This document shows, in pieces, positions 45,137-58,271 of a DNA stretch of 64,000 nt. The stretch covers positions 10,531-74,530 of the forward strand of contig DATBLZ010000161.1 in the NCBI GenBank assembly GCA_036555065.1, in the 5' to 3' direction. Each line of letters starts with the position of its first letter. Position 1 is the stretch's first letter. This DNA comes from Gammaproteobacteria bacterium. Its GTDB lineage: Bacteria; Pseudomonadota; Gammaproteobacteria; Steroidobacterales; Rariloculaceae. Made by a program: the position numbers and the translations under genes. The notes below the pieces were generated by a model. That model was not told the origin of the DNA, made no database searches, and was given only the letters and a program-made list of their open reading frames with translations.

Positions 45137-45223
45137 GCCCAGGTGGCGGAACTGGTAGACGCGCTGGTTTCAGGTGCCAGTGGGGTAAAACCTGTGGAGG
45201 TTCGAGTCCTCTCCTGGGCACCA
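45137..45223 (+). tRNA. tRNA-Leu (anticodon CAG), type II with a long variable arm and encoded CCA
   Basis: The acceptor stem GCCCAGG pairs with CCTGGGC. The anticodon stem-loop is CTGGT-TTCAGGT-GCCAG. The T arm is GGAGGTTCGAGTCCTCT, and the 3' end is ACCA. Confidence 0.93.
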
Positions 45224-46690: not shown

Positions 46691-47242
46691 ATGACTGAAT
46701 CCCCCTTCGACTGGAACGTCGTGGTTACGGTCTACGACGGCGAGTTCAACGAAGCCGTCCGGTTGCTCCGGCCCTACGGCGAAGTCGCGCGGACCGACTA
46801 CTGGAACGTGCTCGCAATGCGGGTCGAAGACGTTGCCGAATTCGTCCAGGCTCTTGAAAGCGCCACACGAGAGGACGCCACGATTCCCAATGCGGTCGCG
46901 AGAATCGTCCCGGTCACGGCCAAGTTCCGGTTTCAGTCGCCCGCGGAGTTCGAGGAGAAGACGCGCGCGCTCGTCGAACGATGGCTATCCGACCTCAAAG
47001 GCAAGAGCTTCCACGTGCGAATGCACCGAAGAGGTTTCAAGGGTCGATTATCGAGCCAGCACGAAGAGCAGTTCCTCGATCATCATTTGCTCGAGCGCTT
47101 GACACAGGAAGGCGGCCCGGGCCGAATCGATTTCGCCGATCCCGACGTGATCATCGCCGTCGAGACGCTTGGACAAACCGCGGGCTTGTCGCTCTGGACG
47201 CGCGAGCAGCGTCAATCGTTCGAGCTGCTCGATCTCGACTGA
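46691..47242 (+). CDS. Stand-alone THUMP-domain protein (putative RNA binding)
   Basis: From the ATG at 46691: MTESPFDWNVVVTV... is a ferredoxin-like N-terminal domain. FHVRMHRRGFKGRLSSQHEEQFL...IDFADPDVIIAVETLGQTAGLSLW follows the THUMP pattern. The 18 upstream codons in the track lie inside repeat copy A. Confidence 0.65.
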   Translation: MTESPFDWNVVVTVYDGEFNEAVRLLRPYGEVARTDYWNVLAMRVEDVAEFVQALESATREDATIPNAVARIVPVTAKFRFQSPAEFEEKTRALVERWLSDLKGKSFHVRMHRRGFKGRLSSQHEEQFLDHHLLERLTQEGGPGRIDFADPDVIIAVETLGQTAGLSLWTREQRQSFELLDLD

Positions 47243-49621: not shown

Positions 49622-50647
49622 TCACTCTTGCCGCACTGCGACCCTCCATGCTCCGGCGCCGCCGGCCGGGCGGCACTCGATCGCGAGCGGCAGGAATTGC
49701 CGAACGACTTCGATATTCGTCAGCGTATGGCGGCTCGGCGGCATAGTCATGAAGCTGCCGGCGCCGGCAAGCGCGAACGGCAGCAGCAACTGATCGGCCA
49801 GATGAACACCGATGGCAACGCCGGCGCTCAGATAGGCCTTGGCGGCGTCAACGACGGCCTGGGCCACGCTCTCCGCGGGCACGCCGCGACGGCCGAAGGC
49901 CGTGAAGGCCTCAGTGAGCGCCTCGCTGATAACGAACGCGCTCACGGCGTTCCCCGGCCCCAGGGTGTCCTGCACGAGGCGAATGCGCACCGACGCGGGC
50001 CCGAAACCGAGCCCCTGCGCGAGCACCGCCGCTTCGCGCTCGGCGATGTGGCGTGGCAGCTTGCTGAGCAGGACTTCCGCCTCGAGACGCTGCAGCGGGC
50101 CGCGCATCTCAAGATGGAGCGCCTCGAGCCGTGCCGCTGGCGCGACGCGCACGCGCACGCGGCCGCCGCCCGCTGGCTCGAAGCCGATACGCTCGAGCTC
50201 GATCGAGATCCGCGGACCCATGCGTTCGATGAGCGGCAGGTAAGCCCGCGCCAGGAAGTCGAACGTCGGCGCGCGCGGATTGTGCGTTCCGCCCTCGAGC
50301 AAGAGCTCCGAGCCCGCCCTCGCCGTCAAGAGCGCCGGAAGCACGGTTTGCAGCACCAGGCTCGTGCTGCCGGCCGTACCGATCGCAAAGCGATAGCTGC
50401 CGGGCTTGATGTCACCGGGAACGAACGTGAGGTCCTGCCCGTTTAGCGCGGCACCACGAACTTCGGCGCCGGAGACCTCAGCCGCCGCTCGGACGGCCGC
50501 GAGATGCTGGGGCCGAAGCCCGGGCCTCGGCCGCCGCGCCCGGATGTTGACGATGCGGCAGGGGCGCCGTTCACACAGCGCCAACGCGACGGCCGTGCGC
50601 AGGATTTGCCCGCCGCCTTCACCGGTCGAACCGTCGATCGTGATCAT
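49622..50647 (-). CDS. rtcA: RNA 3'-terminal phosphate cyclase
   Basis: 341 aa. MITIDGSTGEGGGQILRTAVALALCERRPCRIVNIRARRPRPGLRPQHL...LADQLLLPFALA matches the RtcA family, including the adenylylated-His region. Confidence 0.9.
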   Translation of the reverse strand: MITIDGSTGEGGGQILRTAVALALCERRPCRIVNIRARRPRPGLRPQHLAAVRAAAEVSGAEVRGAALNGQDLTFVPGDIKPGSYRFAIGTAGSTSLVLQTVLPALLTARAGSELLLEGGTHNPRAPTFDFLARAYLPLIERMGPRISIELERIGFEPAGGGRVRVRVAPAARLEALHLEMRGPLQRLEAEVLLSKLPRHIAEREAAVLAQGLGFGPASVRIRLVQDTLGPGNAVSAFVISEALTEAFTAFGRRGVPAESVAQAVVDAAKAYLSAGVAIGVHLADQLLLPFALAGAGSFMTMPPSRHTLTNIEVVRQFLPLAIECRPAGGAGAWRVAVRQE

Positions 50648-50695: not shown

Positions 50696-50774
50696 TCTAG
50701 GTAGAAATACGAACGGCCCACGGGGGCCGCGCGGCTTAGTCTTCAAACGATGAGTCTCAGCATTACCTCGGCTG
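50696..50774 (+). repeat. Copy B of the roughly 78-nt imperfect direct repeat (rtcA / PEBP divergent intergenic region; includes the first 8 PEBP codons)
   Basis: tctagGTAGAAATACGAA-[22-nt GC core]-CTTAGTCTTcaaaCGATGAgtctcagcattACCTCGGCTG. Confidence 0.7.
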
Positions 50775-51226
50775 CGTTTGGCGATAACGGAGAGATTCCG
50801 GCCATTCATACCTGCGAGGGGGAGAATGCGTCGCCACCATTGAGCTTTTCGGGCGTGCCCGAGAACGTCGCGAGCCTGGCGCTGATTGTCGACGATCCGG
50901 ATGCGCCGGACCCGCGCGCGCCGAAAACGACGTGGGTGCACTGGATTCTTTACGACATTCCTCCCGATTGCCCAGGCCTGCCGGAGGCGGTCGCGACGAG
51001 CGCGCTGCCGAAAGGATCGAGACAAGGCAAGAACGATTGGCGCCGTACCGACTACGGCGGGCCTTGTCCGCCGATCGGCCGGCATCGATACTTCCACAAG
51101 CTTTATGCGCTCGACGTACGATTGGGCGATCTCAAGACGCCAAGCAAGGCCACGCTCGAACGTGCGATGGATGGCCACGTGGTCGCGAAGGCCGCGCTGA
51201 TCGGCACCTACGAGAAGCACGGGTAG
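50750..51226 (+). CDS. YbhB/YbcL family PEBP (Raf kinase inhibitor-like) protein
   Basis: MSLSITSAAFGDNGEIPAIHTCEGENASPPLSFSGVP...LIVDDPDAP...WVHWILYDIP...YGGPCPPIGRHRYFHKLYALD. Confidence 0.88.
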   Translation: MSLSITSAAFGDNGEIPAIHTCEGENASPPLSFSGVPENVASLALIVDDPDAPDPRAPKTTWVHWILYDIPPDCPGLPEAVATSALPKGSRQGKNDWRRTDYGGPCPPIGRHRYFHKLYALDVRLGDLKTPSKATLERAMDGHVVAKAALIGTYEKHG

Positions 51227-51252
51227 CGCTCCGTGCTCCGCGGCTGGCACCC

Positions 51253-53175
51253 ATGCATGAAGACCGCGTCCTCGCAAAGCTCGAAGGGCACAGCCGCATC
51301 CTGCTGACGGGCGCGATCGGCGCCGGGAAGTCGACGCTCGCGGCTCTGCTCGGTGCGGCCCTCAATCGGGAGAGTCGCGCGTGCGCGTGCGTCGGCTGCG
51401 ATCCGGGCTCGCCGGCCTTCGGTGTCCCGGGTGCCGTGTGCCTCGCCGGGTGGCGGGACGGGGCGTGGGCGCTCGTGGATTTCGAGCCCTTGTGCAGTCT
51501 AGACGCGGCGCGCTTTCGCTTGCCGCTGATCCAGTGCGTGGCACGTCTACTGGAGCGCACGGCCTACGAGCGCGTGCTGTTCGATGGTCCCGGGGTCGTT
51601 CGCGGCGTCGCCGGAGCCGAGCTCCTTGCCGGGCTCGTCGCAGCCGCGCGGATCGACGTCGTCCTCGCACTCGAGCGTTCCGGCCGCGTCGGCGAGCTCG
51701 ATGCCGAGCTCGCCGCGCTCGCGGTACCCGTGCACCGTGTTCCGGCCGCCGCCGAGGCGCACGCGCCGAGCAAGCGGGTCCGGGCACGCCGGCGAACGTC
51801 ACTCTGGGACGCGCATCTCAGTGGCGCTGACGAATATCGCATCGATCTGCGAAGCCTGTCGTGCGTCGGCACGCCCCCGCCACACGACGCGGCGGACGCA
51901 TGGGCTGGGCGCCAAGTAGCGCTCTTGCGTGACCAGAAATGCGTGGCGTTCGGCGAGGCTGCAAGCGTCGAGGGAAAGACGTTGAGAGCGCGGCTGCGCG
52001 GCGCTCCGTCCAGCGCGAGCGCGCTCCTCGTGCGTGATGCGCAGCGCGGCGTGCATGGCCTGCTCGAGACCGCGCGTCCGTTTGCCGCCGACGTCACCGA
52101 CCTATCAGCCAGGCGGAATGCGCATCCGCCGAGCGCCGGGTTCGGCCCGCGCCCTGCCGCGAAAGTCGGACCGTTCACCGCCGCGCTCATCAACGGCGTC
52201 TTTGGCGATCCCCTGCTGCTCGTGCGGCTGCGCCATGGACGGCGCTGTCTGCTGTTCGATCTGGGCGAGGCCGGACGCCTGCCCGCGCGGACCGCGCATG
52301 CGGTGACCGACGTCTTCATCAGCCACGCCCACATCGATCACATCGCGGGTTTCATGTGGTTTCTTCGCTCGCGAATCGGCGAGTTTCCACCATGTCGCGT
52401 CTACGGCCCCTCGGGTCTGGCGAATAACGTTGCGGGCATGATCGCGGGCGTCCATTGGGACCGCGTGGGCGAGCGCCGTCCGCGTTTCGAGGTCATGGAG
52501 CTGCACGGCGAGCACATTCTGCGCTTCGCCGTTTCCGCCGGCTGCGGCGCCCCGCGAGGTCTCGGGGAAGAAAGCGCGCCCGGTGGGATCCTGCTTGTCG
52601 ACTCGCTTTTCCAGGTTCGCGCAACCGTGCTCGATCACCGCACGCCGGTCCTGGCCTACGCGCTCGACCCGAGCACCGAGATCAAGGTGCGCAAGGACCG
52701 CCTCGCCGCGTCGGGCTTGCGACCCGGCCCTTGGCTCACGGAGCTCAAGCAAGCCATCGTCGAGCGCGAGGACGATGCGCTCCTCGAGCTGCCCGACGGC
52801 AGCACGAGGCGTGCCCAGGCGCTCGCCGACGAGCTCGTGATGGTCCGCCCCGGCGAGAGGCTCGCCTATGCCACCGACCTCGCCGATACGGCCGCGAACC
52901 GCGAGCGCCTGAGCGCGCTCGCCCGCGGCGCGCATACGTTCTTTTGCGAGGCGACTTTTTGCGAGTCCGACGCCGCGCGGGCCGCGCGCACGGGCCATCT
53001 TACGGCGCGCGCCTGCGGCGAGATCGCCACCGCGGCCGGCGTCGAGCGCCTGATCCCGTTCCATTTCTCGCGGCGCTACGAATCCAGTCCCGCGCGGGTC
53101 TACCGCGAAGTGCGCGCAGCCTGCTCGCGAGCGGTCGTGCCCCGCGGGATATCGGGCCTCGACGATGTCGGATGA
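51253..53175 (+). CDS. Fusion protein: N-terminal Clp1/Grc3/Nol9-like polynucleotide 5'-kinase and C-terminal RNase Z-like metallo-beta-lactamase
   Basis: 640 aa from the ATG at 51253, 26 nt after the PEBP stop. N-terminal half: Walker A LLTGAIGAGKSTL, CDPGSPAFGVPG (compare Clp1/Grc3 D-x-D-x-GQ) and VLFDGPGVVRGVAGAELLAGLVAAARIDVVLAL (compare Clp1 NTxGWVxGxG...VV.L). C-terminal half from about aa 305: DVFISHAHIDHIAGF (HxHxDH), LRPGPWLTELKQ and a terminal HFSRRY. Confidence 0.75.
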   Translation: MHEDRVLAKLEGHSRILLTGAIGAGKSTLAALLGAALNRESRACACVGCDPGSPAFGVPGAVCLAGWRDGAWALVDFEPLCSLDAARFRLPLIQCVARLLERTAYERVLFDGPGVVRGVAGAELLAGLVAAARIDVVLALERSGRVGELDAELAALAVPVHRVPAAAEAHAPSKRVRARRRTSLWDAHLSGADEYRIDLRSLSCVGTPPPHDAADAWAGRQVALLRDQKCVAFGEAASVEGKTLRARLRGAPSSASALLVRDAQRGVHGLLETARPFAADVTDLSARRNAHPPSAGFGPRPAAKVGPFTAALINGVFGDPLLLVRLRHGRRCLLFDLGEAGRLPARTAHAVTDVFISHAHIDHIAGFMWFLRSRIGEFPPCRVYGPSGLANNVAGMIAGVHWDRVGERRPRFEVMELHGEHILRFAVSAGCGAPRGLGEESAPGGILLVDSLFQVRATVLDHRTPVLAYALDPSTEIKVRKDRLAASGLRPGPWLTELKQAIVEREDDALLELPDGSTRRAQALADELVMVRPGERLAYATDLADTAANRERLSALARGAHTFFCEATFCESDAARAARTGHLTARACGEIATAAGVERLIPFHFSRRYESSPARVYREVRAACSRAVVPRGISGLDDVG

Positions 53176-53310
53176 ACCATGCGTGGAGCTGGTCGAATGG
53201 AGGCTGCCAGCCCTCGAGCTCCGCTGAGCCGGCTTTCGGCGCGCGCATTCATCGGGGCTGAAGCTCTTGACGAGCTTCTTGTGCGCGATGCGCCCATCGT
53301 TGAACGGTCT

Positions 53311-53578
53311 TCAACAAGGCAATGAGTGCAGCTTCTTCATGACTTCGCGGAGAAACGTTGGAAGATCGCGAAGCACGCCGGCGCTGATCAGGATCTGCGG
53401 ACCGTGACAGATCGCGAACACGGGCTTTTTCGCCCGGAAGAAGGCACGCACGACCCCCAGCACGGCCGGGGAATTGGAGGAGCGATTGGGGCGCTTGGCC
53501 GCCTGGGAGCAGCAGCCCGCCATGCTTGCCCGTAATGCGGCCCGGCCCGAGCGAGGCGATGTCCACGCCGATGCCTTC
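53311..53578 (-). pseudogene. DJ-1/PfpI family gene remnant
   Basis: KKPVFAICHGPQILISAGVL (nucleophile elbow) and DLPTFLREVMKKL (family C-terminus) share one frame, but the roughly 45 aa normally between them are missing. The upstream ITGKHG / LLLPGG block lies in a different frame. Confidence 0.5.
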
Positions 53579-53612
53579 TGCGGATTCACGTGCGCATCCA
53601 TCTCGGGATCGG

Positions 53613-54006
53613 CTACCGCAGCACCTTCGCCATGCCGTCGCGTGCGATCTCGACGTCGACGCCCCATTCCTCGCCGAGGCGAGAAACTCTCGCGCGGACG
53701 GTACGCTCGTCGGCCGCGACGATGCCCATGCCGCAGTGCGTGACCATCATGGGGGGAACGCCCTCTTCCCGGCACCACTTCAGTTGCTCGCCAATCGTCG
53801 TATGACCGGCGCGCGTGCCAGTGGCTTTCTCGGTGTGAACGATCGGCCGGAATGACGCCGCCCCGTCGCCGACATAAAGCCGAGCGCCCCGCAGCGCTGC
53901 GTGCCTCTCCGGGATAGAAAGAACGTCCGGCACCCAGAACACAATGACCGTTGTGGCCGTGATGCGGTAGCCGACCGCAGCGCGTGCCCAGAAACGTGAT
54001 CTTCAT
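53613..54006 (-). pseudogene. MBL-fold hydrolase gene remnant (internal deletion plus frameshift)
   Basis: The ATG at 54006 gives MKITFLGTR, a typical family N-terminus. About 10 codons later the homologous frame jumps by 1 nt straight to ...GYRITATTVIVFWVPDVLSIPERHAALRGARLYVGDGAA...HTTIGEQLKWCREEGVPPMMVTHCG...EIARDGM, the family's C-terminal half. The HxHxDH region is absent. Confidence 0.6.
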
Positions 54007-54023
54007 GGCGGTTGCGGCGACCC

Positions 54024-55070
54024 TCACCACTGACAGTCGATGCCATTCTCGATGCTCTTGATGAACGCGCTCGCAGCATGTCCCGTAACATCGATCCTCT
54101 GTGCCCGGTCGTTACGGGACATGCCGAAACCGCCCCGCTCCCTGCCGGAACCGTCATCCGTGCATTGCAGCCCAAGCAAATACGTCAATCCGCTGCAGAT
54201 GCAGCGGCGATAACGTTGAGCACGATCGTCGTGCGACGCACACGCCAGCGCATAGGCCTCGTTCAAGCCCTCGAGCGCACAAGCCGCCTCCACCGAGAAC
54301 AGTTCGCCCGGGCGGCGCTCGACGGACTCGTAGAAGCCCTGGTCGGCGATCTGGTCGTGGATGCGACAGACGTAGTCCATGACTTGCTGCTTGAGCGCGG
54401 GGCTTCGTGCACACTCGAACAGACGCCGGCAAGCCTGGGATTGCCAATTGCCGAAAAAAACGAGTGCGTTCTCGCTGACACGGTCGCGCGCGTAGTATTG
54501 CGTGTTGTAGAAGGAGAAACCGCGTTCCACGCTTTGCAGGTAGCGTGCCTCCGGCAGCTGGCGATAGGCTTCCATTAGCGCGAGCATGGCCTCACCCGCA
54601 TACAGCTCCTCGCCGGTATCCGGCATATCGTGAAAGTACACCTTGTACGAGCCGTCTCGTCTTTGTTGACGGAGTATCCCCTCGGCGAGTGCGCTGATCT
54701 GCCGCGTGCTGATCGGCGGCGGGGCGCACAACAGAGCCAGGGCCATGAAGGCGCTATGGGCGATCGATGAGGGCTCCTGGAGGCGGCGTGAATCGAGAAT
54801 CATGTAGCCATCGCGGTCCAGGAGGTAGCCGTCGTAGTGCGCCAAGGACTTGCGAACCAACGGGCCAAGCTCGCGGGTCCCGAGAAAATCGCCGAGTAGC
54901 TCCGCGTCCCACACCGAAGCGATGTCCCGGATCGGGGATTTCTCACGTACGAAGGCGTCAGTCTGAGGGAGGTAGAGGTACTCGAACATCCCCGTGTCCG
55001 GATTCACCATACCCTCGTACCATCGATAAACGAGACGCAGGCGCTGCGTAAGTACCTCAGCCGTTTTCAT
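54024..55070 (-). CDS. Hypothetical protein, possibly an alpha/alpha-toroid fold
   Basis: 348 aa, all-helical by eye, with repeated aromatic/acidic hairpin-like segments. I do not recognise a family. GC is lower than in the core genes. Confidence 0.5.
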   Translation of the reverse strand: MKTAEVLTQRLRLVYRWYEGMVNPDTGMFEYLYLPQTDAFVREKSPIRDIASVWDAELLGDFLGTRELGPLVRKSLAHYDGYLLDRDGYMILDSRRLQEPSSIAHSAFMALALLCAPPPISTRQISALAEGILRQQRRDGSYKVYFHDMPDTGEELYAGEAMLALMEAYRQLPEARYLQSVERGFSFYNTQYYARDRVSENALVFFGNWQSQACRRLFECARSPALKQQVMDYVCRIHDQIADQGFYESVERRPGELFSVEAACALEGLNEAYALACASHDDRAQRYRRCICSGLTYLLGLQCTDDGSGRERGGFGMSRNDRAQRIDVTGHAASAFIKSIENGIDCQW

Positions 55071-55494: not shown

Positions 55495-56061
55495 ATGCAA
55501 GTACCACTGGAAATTAGGTTCCACAACATGGATCGCTCCGAAGCGATCGAATCAGCCGCTCGCGCGAACGCAATGAAACTCGAACGTTTCGCCGAGCACA
55601 TTGTCAGCTGTCGCGTGACTGTGGAAGCGCCTCACAAGCATCATCGCCAGGGCAAGCTCTTTCACGTGGTGGTTGACGTTCGCCTGCCGGGCGGTGAGCT
55701 CGTGGTGAGCCGCGACCCAGACCAGCATCATGCCCATGAGGACGTACACGTCGCACTACGTGACGCTTTCAAGGCCGTGCGACGCCAAGTCCAAGACTAC
55801 GTCCGCGTGCAGCGCGGAAAGCTCAAGACTCACGAGGTCCCGCCATACGGCAGGATCGTTGCTTTGCATCCAGACGAGGACTATGGGCGTATCGCAACAC
55901 CGGACGGACGCGAGATCTACTTTCACCGCAATAGCGTCGTGAACGCCGATTTCGACCGCTTGAAGGTCGGCCTCGAAGTCAGGATCAGCGAGGAGGCGGG
56001 GGATCGCGGACCGCAGGCCAGCACCGTGTACGTCATCGGCAAGCACCACTTGGTCGGCTGA
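55495..56061 (+). CDS. HPF/RaiA-like ribosome-associated factor fused to a cold-shock (CSD) domain
   Basis: The N-terminus MQVPLEIRFHNMDRSEAIESAARANAMKLERFAEHIVSCRVTVE...VHVALRDAFKAVRRQVQDY is S30AE/HPF-like. The C-terminus YGRIVALHPDEDYGRIATPDGREIYFHRNSV...LKVGLEVRISEEAGDRGPQASTVYVI is CSD-like. Confidence 0.75.
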   Translation: MQVPLEIRFHNMDRSEAIESAARANAMKLERFAEHIVSCRVTVEAPHKHHRQGKLFHVVVDVRLPGGELVVSRDPDQHHAHEDVHVALRDAFKAVRRQVQDYVRVQRGKLKTHEVPPYGRIVALHPDEDYGRIATPDGREIYFHRNSVVNADFDRLKVGLEVRISEEAGDRGPQASTVYVIGKHHLVG

Positions 56062-56107: not shown

Positions 56108-56524
56108 ATGCGAGCCCGCTACGAGCACTTCGCGCACCGCGCCGATATCGGGGTCCGCGGATTCGGTGGGTCCGGAGCGCAGGCTTTCGAGCAAGCCGCG
56201 CTTGCGATGACGGCCGCAGTCACCGATCTCGAAACCGTAGCCGCCTTGCAGGAGGTCGACGTCTTGCTGCGGGGCACCGGACCGCGAGCTGCTGCTCGCC
56301 GACTGGCTGAACGCGATCGTCTACGAAATCGCGACGCGCCACATGGTGTTTGGACGTTTCCAAGTCCACATCGAGGAGTGCAGTCTGCACGGCAAGACCC
56401 GGGGCGAAGAGATCAGCGCCGCCAAGCACGAGCCAGGCGTGGATTGATCGGTGGGTACGAGTTCTTACGTATACTCCCGTCCCCGAGGTCGCGCGAGAAT
56501 GCCTTCCAGCGCGAAGTTGATCGT
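56108..56524 (+). pseudogene. Archease (RtcB ligase cofactor family) requiring two compensating frameshifts
   Basis: Frame A (from 56108): [55 protein letters not shown]. Frame B (from about 56271): [58 protein letters not shown], then a stop at 56445. Frame A again: [10 protein letters not shown]...AFQREVD. The first shift falls at a GGGG run (56271-56274). Confidence 0.6.
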
Positions 56525-56552
56525 CCGCTTTTCTTTCAAATCCAGAGAGGTC

Positions 56553-56936
56553 ATGACGCAACAGAGCCAACAGCGATCGCCCCTCATCAAGCATATCTCC
56601 TGGGGGCGAATGACGGTCGATAACGTCGGTGCGGGAAAAGACTTCAAACTCTGGCCCGGCGGTGGACGAGCGTGGGATTGGACGGAAACCGGCACGCATC
56701 ACGTTCCGGGCATTCAACCGGCCGATGTCGAGGAGCTGCTGGGTCACGGCTGCAACATCATCGTTCTGAGCCGCGGCGTGCTGATGAGACTGGGCACCTG
56801 CAAGGAGACGCTCGAGCTGCTGAAAGCCAAGGGCGTGGAGGTGAGAACGGCGGAAACGATGGAGGCTGCAAGAGTGTACAACCGGCTCGCTTCAAGCGGC
56901 CAGGCCGTCGGGGGCCTGTTTCATTCGACGTGCTGA
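56553..56936 (+). CDS. Mth938-like (DUF498) domain protein
   Basis: From the ATG at 56553 (AGAGAGG upstream): ...[52 protein letters not shown]...IIVLSRGV...[23 protein letters not shown]. Confidence 0.7.
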
Positions 56937-57428: not shown

Positions 57429-58271
57429 CTACATCCGAGGACTCGCGCCGTGCTTCTCGGCTTTCCGATAGACAGCGTGTCGGTCAGACCACGTGGAGAA
57501 ACCGATCGTGCCGGGCGGGAGCTTCTCCTTTCGGCCCAAGACCAACGCCCCTCCGTCACGGAGGCTGCCGCAGAGCGTCCATGCCGCCGCGGCTTGTTGC
57601 TCGAGCCCAAAGTACGTGAAGGCCACGTTCCGGCAGCTGATCAGATGGAATGATCCCCCGACCGGGCCGTGCCGCAGATCGTGCGAGCGGAAACTGATCC
57701 GGGCTTTGTAGGCGGCCTTCAGACGATACAGGCCGTGCTCCTCATCGAAGGCGTCAGCGAGCCAGGCGCGCGGAACGTGCTTCACGGCGCCCCCCGTATA
57801 GCAGGCGGCTTTCGCGCGCTCGAGCAGGTGCGGATCGATATCCGTGCCGACGACCTGGAGATCGAGGCGCGGAAACCGTGTTGCGACGAGGAAGTGCCAG
57901 ACGAGCGCCAATGTATAAGGCTCCTCTCCCGACGCGCAGCCCGCGCTCCATGCCTTAAGCTCGGATTCGCCGCGAGCGGCTGCGCCGGTCGCGAGCTCCG
58001 GCAGCACGACGCGTCCGAGGAATCCAAAGACCTCGCTGTCGCGGTTGAAGCTCGAGATCGTCACTGTGCAGAAGGAATCCGCAACGGCCCATTCCTCGGG
58101 GTGGTTTTCGAGATACGAGCGGTACTCCCGTCCGTCCGACAAGCACAGCTCGGCCAGTCGGCGAGCGATCCGCTTGCAGACCTGCTTCCGCACCGCCCGA
58201 AAGCCGGCCCATCGCAGGCCGAGCCGCGGCAACAGCCACGTCAACAGCGCGACACAGTCATCATCTCTCAT
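57429..58271 (-). CDS. CheR-family protein-glutamate methyltransferase-like protein (orphan)
   Basis: 280 aa. KAWSAGCASGEEPYTLA is the SAM-binding motif, and ISCRNVAFTYF is also present. There are no other che genes nearby. Confidence 0.8.
   Translation of the reverse strand: MRDDDCVALLTWLLPRLGLRWAGFRAVRKQVCKRIARRLAELCLSDGREYRSYLENHPEEWAVADSFCTVTISSFNRDSEVFGFLGRVVLPELATGAAARGESELKAWSAGCASGEEPYTLALVWHFLVATRFPRLDLQVVGTDIDPHLLERAKAACYTGGAVKHVPRAWLADAFDEEHGLYRLKAAYKARISFRSHDLRHGPVGGSFHLISCRNVAFTYFGLEQQAAAAWTLCGSLRDGGALVLGRKEKLPPGTIGFSTWSDRHAVYRKAEKHGASPRM

Follow-up and report, generated by a model that had tools for sequence, protein, structure and literature searches.

What would a bacterium do with an RNA kinase and a tRNA-type nuclease joined in one polypeptide? 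The question is raised by a 64,000-nucleotide stretch of DNA (here called the window) from a gammaproteobacterium of the family Rariloculaceae (GenBank assembly GCA_036555065.1, contig DATBLZ010000161.1, positions 10,531 to 74,530 of the forward strand), in which a complete gene on the plus strand, stop codon included, occupies positions 51253 to 53175 and encodes a 640-amino-acid product. The original prediction, made from the sequence alone, described this product as a single polypeptide combining a kinase with an RNase Z-like nuclease, and the gene proved to be intact, with hidden Markov model (HMM), profile, and fold evidence for both halves. The N-terminal part (residues 1 to 285) is predicted from the sequence and a structure model to be a bacterial Clp1-type P-loop kinase that is complete down to its beta domain, and the C-terminal part (residues 306 to 630) is likewise predicted to be an RNase Z-type metallo-beta-lactamase (MBL) with all metal ligands and a tRNA-binding arm. 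We tentatively favor the reading that the fusion is an end-healing enzyme, in which the kinase would convert 5'-OH to 5'-phosphate and the RNase Z half would restore 3'-OH on broken tRNA-like RNAs.

One gene and two enzymes

The reading frame is open from 50932 to 53175, and translation from the ATG at 51253 gives the 640 residues. This ATG is taken as the true start because it lies 26 nucleotides past the stop codon of the preceding gene (encoding a phosphatidylethanolamine-binding protein [PEBP]), because the nearest homologue opens with MHEDRVLA, as does the window protein, and because an identical 640-residue sequence has been deposited from a gammaproteobacterial metagenome-assembled genome (HEY7673211.1, "Clp1/GlmU family protein"). 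The longer frame from the GTG at 50932 was rejected, as it overlaps the PEBP gene and homologues begin at the ATG. An assembly or gene-calling artifact joining two genes, a concern raised in the original prediction, was also rejected, since the sequence of HEY7673211.1 occurs on two contigs across the NCBI, JGI, and Logan sources and since there are more than 1,300 clusters of homologues and the active sites are invariant in 93 loci. A promoter and terminator scan showed nothing.

The kinase domain (residues 15 to 190; 51295 to 51822, plus strand) matches the Pfam family CLP1_P (PF16575) over residues 20 to 188 and profile positions 1 to 185 of 188 (E = 1.8e-14), with a score of 54.4 bits where the cut-off is 26.6. 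This half was not placed in an unrelated P-loop family, an outcome set out beforehand as a refutation. When the PDB was searched with a profile of the entire N-terminal half, generic P-loop matches swamped the result; the search became informative after P-loop removal, when Grc3 was the sole match (E = 1e-3). The matching region coincides with both motifs that had been associated with Clp1 and Grc3 beforehand, DPGsPafGvPG against DPGQPEFSPPG of Grc3 and DaPGvvrGvagaeLl against NTPGWIQGtGLDLL.

An AlphaFold2 model built from 56 homologues (predicted local distance difference test [pLDDT] score, 88; predicted template modeling score, 0.73) is disordered only at residues 287 to 294, and structure comparison, one of the checks originally proposed, points to Clp1/Grc3 for the N-terminal half and to RNase Z for the C-terminal half. 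For the former, Foldseek matches include human CLP1 in the TSEN complex (8hmy_E; 1e-14; 294 columns), Caenorhabditis elegans Clp1 (4oi0; 2e-13; 309 columns), and Grc3 (about 1e-9). Since these Clp1 alignments reach over the middle region, the beta-rich domain that follows the kinase (residues 191 to 285; 51823 to 52107, plus strand), with strands assigned by DSSP in the model, corresponds to the Clp1 C-terminal domain, as had been surmised. The same beta domain is found in the alignment of stand-alone bacterial Clp1 proteins of 275 to 300 residues, which are about 26 to 32% identical to the N-terminal half and score 92 to 118 bits in Pfam. Searched by itself, the N-terminal half matches 333 representative clusters at the 50%-identity level (E <= 1e-3).

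Conservation was assessed over 93 collected loci, which form 68 groups at 85% identity; individual loci are referred to below by L numbers. With motifs defined as by Pillon et al. 2018 (PMC5900568), the Walker A segment GAIGAGKS (51310 to 51333, plus strand) follows the pattern GxxxxGK[T/S]: G20, G25, and K26 are the sole residues seen in 91 loci (2 of the 93 are gapped), and position 27 is S or T, so that the P-loop GAIGAGKSTL named originally is confirmed. In the Walker B region DPGSPAFGVPG (51400 to 51432, plus strand), identified from alignments with Grc3 DPGQPEFSPPG and bacterial Clp1 DPGQS, the catalytic Asp50 aligns with the Asp of the Grc3 DPGQ motif and is present in 93/93 loci. The lid helix RARRRTSLW (51781 to 51807, plus strand) keeps its arginines (R177 in 91/93 loci and R181 in 93/93) along with W185 (93/93), and R177 and R181 are also invariant among the aligned stand-alone bacterial Clp1 proteins. 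Invariants specific to the kinase half of the fusion family are an LDAxRFRLP segment, W72, and R117. As judged from the alignments, the phosphotransfer machinery appears intact, with two RNA-contacting signature residues replaced.

The RNase Z-type domain (residues 306 to 630; 52168 to 53142, plus strand) follows a poorly conserved linker (residues 286 to 305; 52108 to 52167, plus strand) that includes the residues with pLDDT below 50 (287 to 294). It matches the NCBIfam "ribonuclease Z" subfamily NF002558 over residues 308 to 629 (E = 1e-85), and phmmer searches of the PDB retrieve Escherichia coli RNase BN/ZiPD, human ELAC1, and Bacillus subtilis RNase Z (2cbn, 3zwf, and 1y44). By fold, the best matches are 2cbn, 2fk6, and 4gcw (E about 1e-17); the alignments with 2fk6 and 4gcw, which are B. 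subtilis RNase Z-tRNA complexes, extend over about 330 columns. The domain is thus of the RNase Z type rather than a small-molecule MBL hydrolase, and the originally noted HAHIDH motif and RNase Z-like GPWLTELK segment agree with the profile, phmmer, and fold results.

The residues of the binuclear zinc site are invariant and align with those of ZiPD, ELAC1, and B. subtilis RNase Z. They comprise H358, H360, D362, and H363 of motif II (HAHIDH, aligned to ZiPD HLHGDH; 52324 to 52341, plus strand; 93/93 loci), H462 of motif III (52636 to 52638, plus strand), D542 of motif IV (52876 to 52878, plus strand), and H604 of motif V. The last lies in a region (52945 to 53064, plus strand) that also holds a CEAT segment (C565 and E566) and an HLT segment (H582 and T584), each with these as sole residues in the 93 loci and aligned with the same three enzymes; the Glu and His of the proton-transfer pair (E566 and H582) are kept, in segments that differ from the canonical HEAT and HST. 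A flexible arm, or exosite, with approximate boundaries (52678 to 52842, plus strand), was placed from the phmmer alignment, conservation, and the model, which shows helices and strands at residues 481 to 528. The counterpart of its sequence GLRPGPWLTELK in E. coli RNase BN is GVPPGPLFQELK, and ELAC1 aligns here as well. The GPW motif of the arm (G492, P493, and W494) reads PGPWLTELK against PGPLFQELK of RNase BN, with G492 and W494 in 92/93 loci.

Breadth and conservation of the family

A search of protein clusters at 90% identity returned 1,387 matches. Nearly all of the best 120 of these are 560 to 704 residues long with both Pfam domains, and they come mostly from Gammaproteobacteria, with source names including Acidiferrobacterales and Ectothiorhodospiraceae. 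A cultured carrier is Litchfieldella xinjiangensis TRM 0175 (L003). The scan of genome contigs used one protein query and gave 8 loci, so that it under-samples the taxonomic range. Databases label the fusion proteins generically only.

Gaps aside, the Walker A Gly and Lys residues, D50, R181, W185, the seven zinc-site residues, E566, and H582 are the sole residues seen in the 93 loci. Mean pairwise identity is 0.56 in the kinase domain, 0.44 in the beta domain, 0.36 in the linker, and 0.63 in the RNase Z domain. These levels and the catalytic invariance imply that both enzymes are under purifying selection and that neither is decaying, and both halves look catalytically competent. One locus departs from the pattern: in L009 (7494 to 9918), an 88%-identical relative, alignment of both PEBP and the 3' part of the fusion runs through several frames, which indicates frameshifts due either to sequencing errors or to pseudogenization.

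The fusion family is chromosomal. Among plasmids and phages we found no match of fusion length, only matches to the RNase Z-like half, and because there was also no PADLOC match, a role in antiphage defense or on a mobile element was rejected. Genes of the NF002558 branch that have no kinase part occur at L096 (6001 to 7038), L097 (6001 to 7068), and L006 (9947 to 11065); their products are 64 to 77% identical to the C-terminal half of the window protein in L096 and L097 and 49% identical in L006, from Pseudomonadales. Such close unfused relatives suggest that the kinase half was gained or lost recently.

The original prediction knew of no characterized bacterial enzyme with this architecture, and our literature search found no description of it either; Burroughs and Aravind 2016 (NAR, on RNA repair systems) lay outside the reach of that search, and a mention there is possible. 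In the Clp1 census of Saito 2019, bacterial Clp1 proteins measure 333 +/- 74 residues and occur in 0.9% of complete bacterial genomes, with no lactamase or RNase Z fusion mentioned.

A candidate end-healing enzyme

RNase Z-type MBL nucleases hydrolyze RNA to leave 3'-OH and 5'-phosphate ends. The RNase Z product therefore already carries a 5'-phosphate, and a kinase would be redundant for the fusion's own cleavage product. Chemically, the pairing becomes reasonable if the kinase and the nuclease domain both work on ends left by other, transesterifying ribonucleases. On the reading that we favor, the substrates would be tRNA-like RNAs broken by such enzymes (toxins or stress RNases). The two N-terminal domains would act as an ATP-dependent kinase that converts a 5'-OH polynucleotide end into a 5'-phosphate, and the RNase Z half would produce a 3'-OH in one of two ways, by cutting after the acceptor stem to trim 3' ends that are damaged or extended, or by taking off a 2',3'-cyclic phosphate. 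Ends bearing 5'-OH and 2',3'-cyclic phosphate would thus become conventional 5'-phosphate and 3'-OH ends, opposite in polarity to those needed by RtcB. An ATP-type ligase could then reseal them, the CCA-adding enzyme could rebuild them, or they could pass to decay enzymes that depend on 5'-phosphate and 3'-OH ends. We infer the identity of the substrate, the RNA kinase activity, the cyclic phosphatase or trimming activity, and the fate of the healed ends.

For one member of the bacterial Clp1 family, from Thermus scotoductus, 5'-OH RNA kinase activity has been demonstrated by experiment (PMC6777427). The RNase Z short forms ELAC1 and rice TMS5 strip the cyclic phosphate from CCA-less tRNA and so allow CCA to be added again (PMC11602120; PMC11897441). 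Moreover, the combination of a kinase with 3'-end healing is an accepted alternative to RtcB, whose substrate is removed by 5' phosphorylation (PMC13247085). The tRNA-binding arm, together with neighboring genes for THUMP and YbaK-like proteins (see below), points to tRNA-like substrates. The sole tRNA or Rfam match in the window is a tRNA-Leu(CAG) gene (45137 to 45223, plus strand) whose 3' CCA is encoded, so that classical trailer removal by RNase Z is not obviously needed there.

Like the stand-alone Clp1 kinases of T. scotoductus (Ts-Clp1) and Pyrococcus (Ph-Clp1), the fusion has a polynucleotide kinase domain and a small C-terminal beta domain and has no eukaryote-type N-terminal domain (PMC6777427); it shares with them Walker A, the Walker B Asp, and the lid arginines and differs in its RNase Z domain, a Ser for the Walker B Gln, a Val for the clasp aromatic residue, and the invariant LDAxRFRLP. 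With the RNase Z short forms (E. coli RNase BN/ZiPD, B. subtilis RNase Z, human ELAC1, and rice TMS5/RNase ZS1) it has in common the fold, the metal motifs, the Glu/His pair, and the GP-motif arm; it departs from them in the absence of a PxKxRN loop, in CEAT and HLT for HEAT and HST, in falling below cut-off within the NF002558 (PRK02126) branch, and in the additional N-terminal kinase. Our impression is that this divergent "ribonuclease Z" branch is uncharacterized as well, although no search aimed at it was made.

Las1-Grc3 and TSEN-CLP1 also couple a Clp1-family kinase to an RNA endonuclease, and outside the P-loop no protein of solved structure is closer in sequence than Grc3, but in these systems the subunits are separate and the HEPN or tRNA-splicing endonuclease folds leave 5'-OH and 2',3'-cyclic phosphate ends. 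Since an MBL nuclease leaves 5'-phosphate and 3'-OH, the coupling logic of the fusion differs from theirs. The machinery that cleaves eukaryotic mRNA 3' ends likewise unites an MBL-fold RNA endonuclease, CPSF73, with Clp1 (CF II / CF IA; PMC3273802). CPSF73, however, belongs to the beta-CASP MBL enzymes and not to RNase Z, and it is a separate protein from Clp1, whose kinase activity is dispensable there.

By function, if the proposed chemistry holds, the fusion most resembles the bifunctional end-healing enzymes, namely T4 Pnkp, bacterial Pnkp with Hen1, and the kinase-cyclic phosphodiesterase (CPD) part of fungal and plant Trl1, in which a 5'-OH kinase and a 3'-end phosphoesterase share one polypeptide and produce 5'-phosphate and 3'-OH ends. 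These are not homologous to it, as they draw their kinases from different P-loop branches and use esterases of the HAD, calcineurin, or 2H type, and the fusion, set against them, has neither a ligase domain nor a linked ligase gene. A CheR-type S-adenosylmethionine (SAM) methyltransferase beside the fusion in 6 lineages (about 9% of groups) offers a loose parallel to Hen1. An obligate kinase-esterase-methyltransferase trio of the Pnkp/Hen1 kind is unsupported beyond that subset of 6/68 groups.

Genomic neighborhood

Flanking open reading frames (ORFs) were clustered without bias across the 68 groups, and all loci were then searched with the window's neighbors. No fixed operon partner emerged across the 68 groups, the top families being PGA_cap (7 groups) and CheR (6 groups). 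RNA-repair and tRNA-related neighbors recur near the fusion as a loose genomic link: at least one of RtcA, RtcB-archease, THUMP, YbaK-like, and HPF/CSD genes is present in 10/68 groups.

In the window, the fusion lies 26 nucleotides downstream of the YbhB/YbcL-type PEBP gene (50750 to 51226, plus strand; PF01161, E = 8e-43), with which it is probably cotranscribed, and this pair is divergent from rtcA, encoding RNA 3'-phosphate cyclase (49622 to 50647, minus strand; PF01137, E = 1e-73; PF05189). This is the arrangement originally described, and the proposal to look for its conservation received a mixed answer. The fusion itself is conserved, but PEBP is a lineage-specific neighbor (4/68 groups) and divergent adjacency to rtcA recurs in L057 alone, with L097 having rtcA next to an RNase Z-like gene that is unfused, so that the association is loose.

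A stand-alone, Tan1-like THUMP protein is encoded at 46691 to 47242 on the plus strand (THUMP, E = 0.0011; NCBI name, "THUMP domain-containing protein"), and its homologue in L089 scores 23.2 bits against a cut-off of 20.6. THUMP genes lie near the fusion in 4 groups, directly adjacent in L089 and L086, and one is divergent from the unfused gene in L097. This protein of about 180 residues recurs beside rtcA, the fusion, or its unfused relative (L098, 7001 to 8586; L089, 5385 to 5912; L097, 5311 to 5844). In Thiohalobacter sp. IOR34 (L098), the THUMP gene and rtcA are 5 nucleotides apart and form an operon, at a locus that also carries a YbaK-like gene, an MJ1316 cyclic-end-recognition protein, and Band_7/NfeD. 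Our literature search found no paper on a THUMP-RtcA link.

Archease is a cofactor of the RtcB ligase. The window contains an archease pseudogene (56108 to 56560, plus strand) with a frameshift and an in-frame stop, in which Pfam Archease positions 1 to 53 of 136 are matched and the rest lies in another frame with the stop. No RtcB motif was found within the window, and the remnant looks like a decayed archease/RtcB module. Archease-RtcB operons lie 2 to 4 kb from the fusion in L016 and L074. Linkage to rtcA or rtcB thus occurs in 4/68 groups (the window, L057, L016, and L074) and is neither an operon nor present at most loci. For four Rtc-type clusters in 451 kb of nonredundant flank, the Poisson P is roughly estimated at 1e-4 to 1e-3 with a background that was assumed (0.5 to 1 cluster per Mb), not measured. 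YbaK-like tRNA_edit genes are nearby in 4 groups and HPF/CSD genes in 3 groups. The HPF/CSD gene of the window (55495 to 56061, plus strand) encodes 188 residues, with a ribosome hibernation/S30AE domain (residues 6 to 103) and a cold-shock domain (residues 120 to 180), and has relatives near the fusion in L038 and L089.

The window also encodes an orphan CheR-type SAM methyltransferase (57429 to 58271, minus strand; PF01739, E = 9e-38). Such a gene is directly adjacent to the fusion, in tandem or divergent, in 6/68 groups. The closest relatives, L001 and L009, have the order PEBP, fusion, CheR, with CheR directly after the fusion in L001. In the window, CheR is inverted and separated from the fusion by 4.2 kb that hold gene remnants, the HPF-CSD gene, the frameshifted archease, and a DUF498 gene. 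The remnants, which begin right behind the fusion gene (53176 to 54030, both strands), include a DJ-1/PfpI fragment (about 53371 to 53496, minus strand; profile positions 73 to 114 of 165) and other ORF pieces, and a 348-residue ORF at 54024 to 55070 (minus strand) matches no Pfam family at E < 0.04. PolX-type polymerases (HhH, polymerase beta, and PHP domains) lie divergently beside the fusion or the PEBP-fusion pair in L074 (1144 to 2904, minus strand) and L001 (3684 to 5393, minus strand).

Weighing the alternatives

Several observations weigh against the end-healing reading. In the kinase half, the glutamine of the Walker B signature [D/E]hhQ, which stand-alone bacterial Clp1 proteins retain in the alignment, is Ser53 in 88/93 loci. 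The corresponding Gln contacts the RNA phosphate, although the Grc3 mutation Q286A cuts activity only 4- to 5-fold (PMC5900568). The clasp-equivalent segment DGPGVVRG (51583 to 51606, plus strand), aligned to Grc3 NTPGWIQG, has [G/A]112-P113-G114-V115 in place of the canonical [T/S/L]xGW, with V115 in 86/93 and R117 in 93/93 loci, whereas the stand-alone bacterial relatives have [T/S]xG[Y/L], with Tyr in most of those aligned. The clasp Trp replaced by Val115 is the residue whose mutation in Grc3 (W364A) nearly abolishes kinase activity (PMC5900568). The two motifs highlighted in the original prediction therefore do align to Grc3, but the one taken for a D-x-D-x-GQ clasp is the Walker B region, with Ser for Gln, and the one read as NTxGWVxGxG has Gly or Ala and Val where the clasp has Thr and Trp. 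The N-terminal half is thus a divergent member of the Clp1 family, conforming to it in HMM match, fold, P-loop, Asp, and lid and departing from it in the Gln and the clasp Trp.

The C-terminal half is, similarly, a divergent RNase Z-family member, with the metal site and the arm in place. Its scores are below both curated cut-offs (287.9 bits against 315 for NF002558, and 103.9 against 292.95 for the equivalog TIGR02651), its HEAT motif is CEAT (C565 in 93/93 loci) as its HST is HLT, and no PxKxRN string occurs in residues 295 to 335 or in the family consensus VNGVFGDPLLHxRLRH; the phmmer alignments to ZiPD begin past that loop. To these points are added the best unfused RNase Z-like relatives, which at 75 to 77% identity show that the module can work without the kinase, and the neighborhoods, in which 58/68 groups have no RNA-repair neighbor, no ligase is consistently linked, and PGA_cap and CheR are the commonest neighbors. 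All lineages are Gammaproteobacteria, so that part of what the neighborhoods have in common may reflect residual synteny by descent and not a functional link.

The same replacements in the kinase half suggest another explanation, in which the protein is a housekeeping RNase Z/BN-type tRNA 3'-end nuclease and the Clp1-like module is not a polynucleotide kinase but an ATP-binding regulator or scaffold, or a kinase for a non-RNA substrate. Yeast Clp1 binds ATP without kinase activity (PMC6777427), the family-specific LDAxRFRLP, W72, and R117 stand in place of the missing canonical motifs, and most loci have no repair context. On the other hand, the invariance of Asp50, Lys26, Ser/Thr27, and the lid arginines would be unexpected in a pure scaffold, and the clasp aromatic residue already varies (Y or L) in stand-alone bacterial Clp1 proteins. 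We therefore regard this explanation as doubtful.

Somewhat less probable still is that the fusion opposes RtcB by licensing decay, with the 5'-phosphate and 3'-OH ends committing fragments to RNase E, which is stimulated by 5'-monophosphate, and to 3'-OH-dependent exonucleases. The chemistry would be identical to that of end healing, and no ligase is linked to the fusion gene in the 68 groups. Furthermore, 5' phosphorylation eliminates the RtcB substrate, and CLP1 acts as a negative regulator of ligation by RTCB in insect cells (PMC13247085), while phosphorylation by Grc3 primes exonucleolytic processing (PMC5900568). However, the tRNA-specific arm and the THUMP and YbaK-like neighbors favor tRNA salvage over bulk decay, and a dependence of RNase E on 5'-phosphate in these organisms is an assumption.

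The original prediction had proposed that RNA cut by the RNase Z domain is then phosphorylated at its new 5' end by the Clp1 domain, in the manner of Las1-Grc3 and TSEN-Clp1. In line with this, a nuclease is here too paired with a Clp1-family kinase, both active sites are invariant, and Grc3 is the sole PDB match once the P-loop is removed. The analogy is nevertheless weak, because Las1 (HEPN) and TSEN leave 5'-OH ends and hence have their kinase (PMC5900568; PMC13247085), whereas the new 5' end left by RNase Z chemistry needs none, and because the RNase Z-like half is unfused in close relatives, and we consider such an enzyme unlikely. A role in DNA end processing, as a 5'-OH DNA kinase and MBL nuclease working with a PolX-type repair polymerase, is very unlikely, since the divergent adjacency of PolX in L074 and L001 and the activity of prokaryotic Clp1 enzymes on single-stranded DNA (PMC6777427) are offset by a nuclease of the RNase Z type with a tRNA arm rather than of the SNM1/Artemis beta-CASP type, by the restriction of PolX adjacency to 2 groups, and by RNA-related neighbors that outnumber PolX.

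Implications for bacterial RNA repair

If the fusion is an end-healing enzyme, it might also be the healing arm of an unrecognized bacterial "5'-phosphate pathway" of tRNA repair or recycling, running parallel to RtcB or acting as a switch against it, an extension that we think rather improbable at present. In such a pathway, the THUMP and YbaK-like proteins would deliver or deacylate tRNA, and RtcA would prepare or activate ends. RtcA is reported, in work of Chakravarty and Shuman, to cyclize 3'-phosphate and adenylylate 5'-phosphate ends. If it exists, such a pathway would be the first in which bacterial Clp1 kinases have a physiological function.

For these kinases, which are rare in bacteria, no role is known so far. 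A widespread and strictly conserved fusion of one of them to an RNase Z-type nuclease, with loose ties to RtcA, RtcB-archease, and tRNA-binding genes, points to a route by which the 5'-OH and cyclic-phosphate ends left by ribotoxins would be turned into ordinary 5'-phosphate and 3'-OH ends. Such a route would complement or oppose RtcB-type repair and would extend to bacteria the idea of "tRNA recycling" developed for ELAC1 and TMS5.

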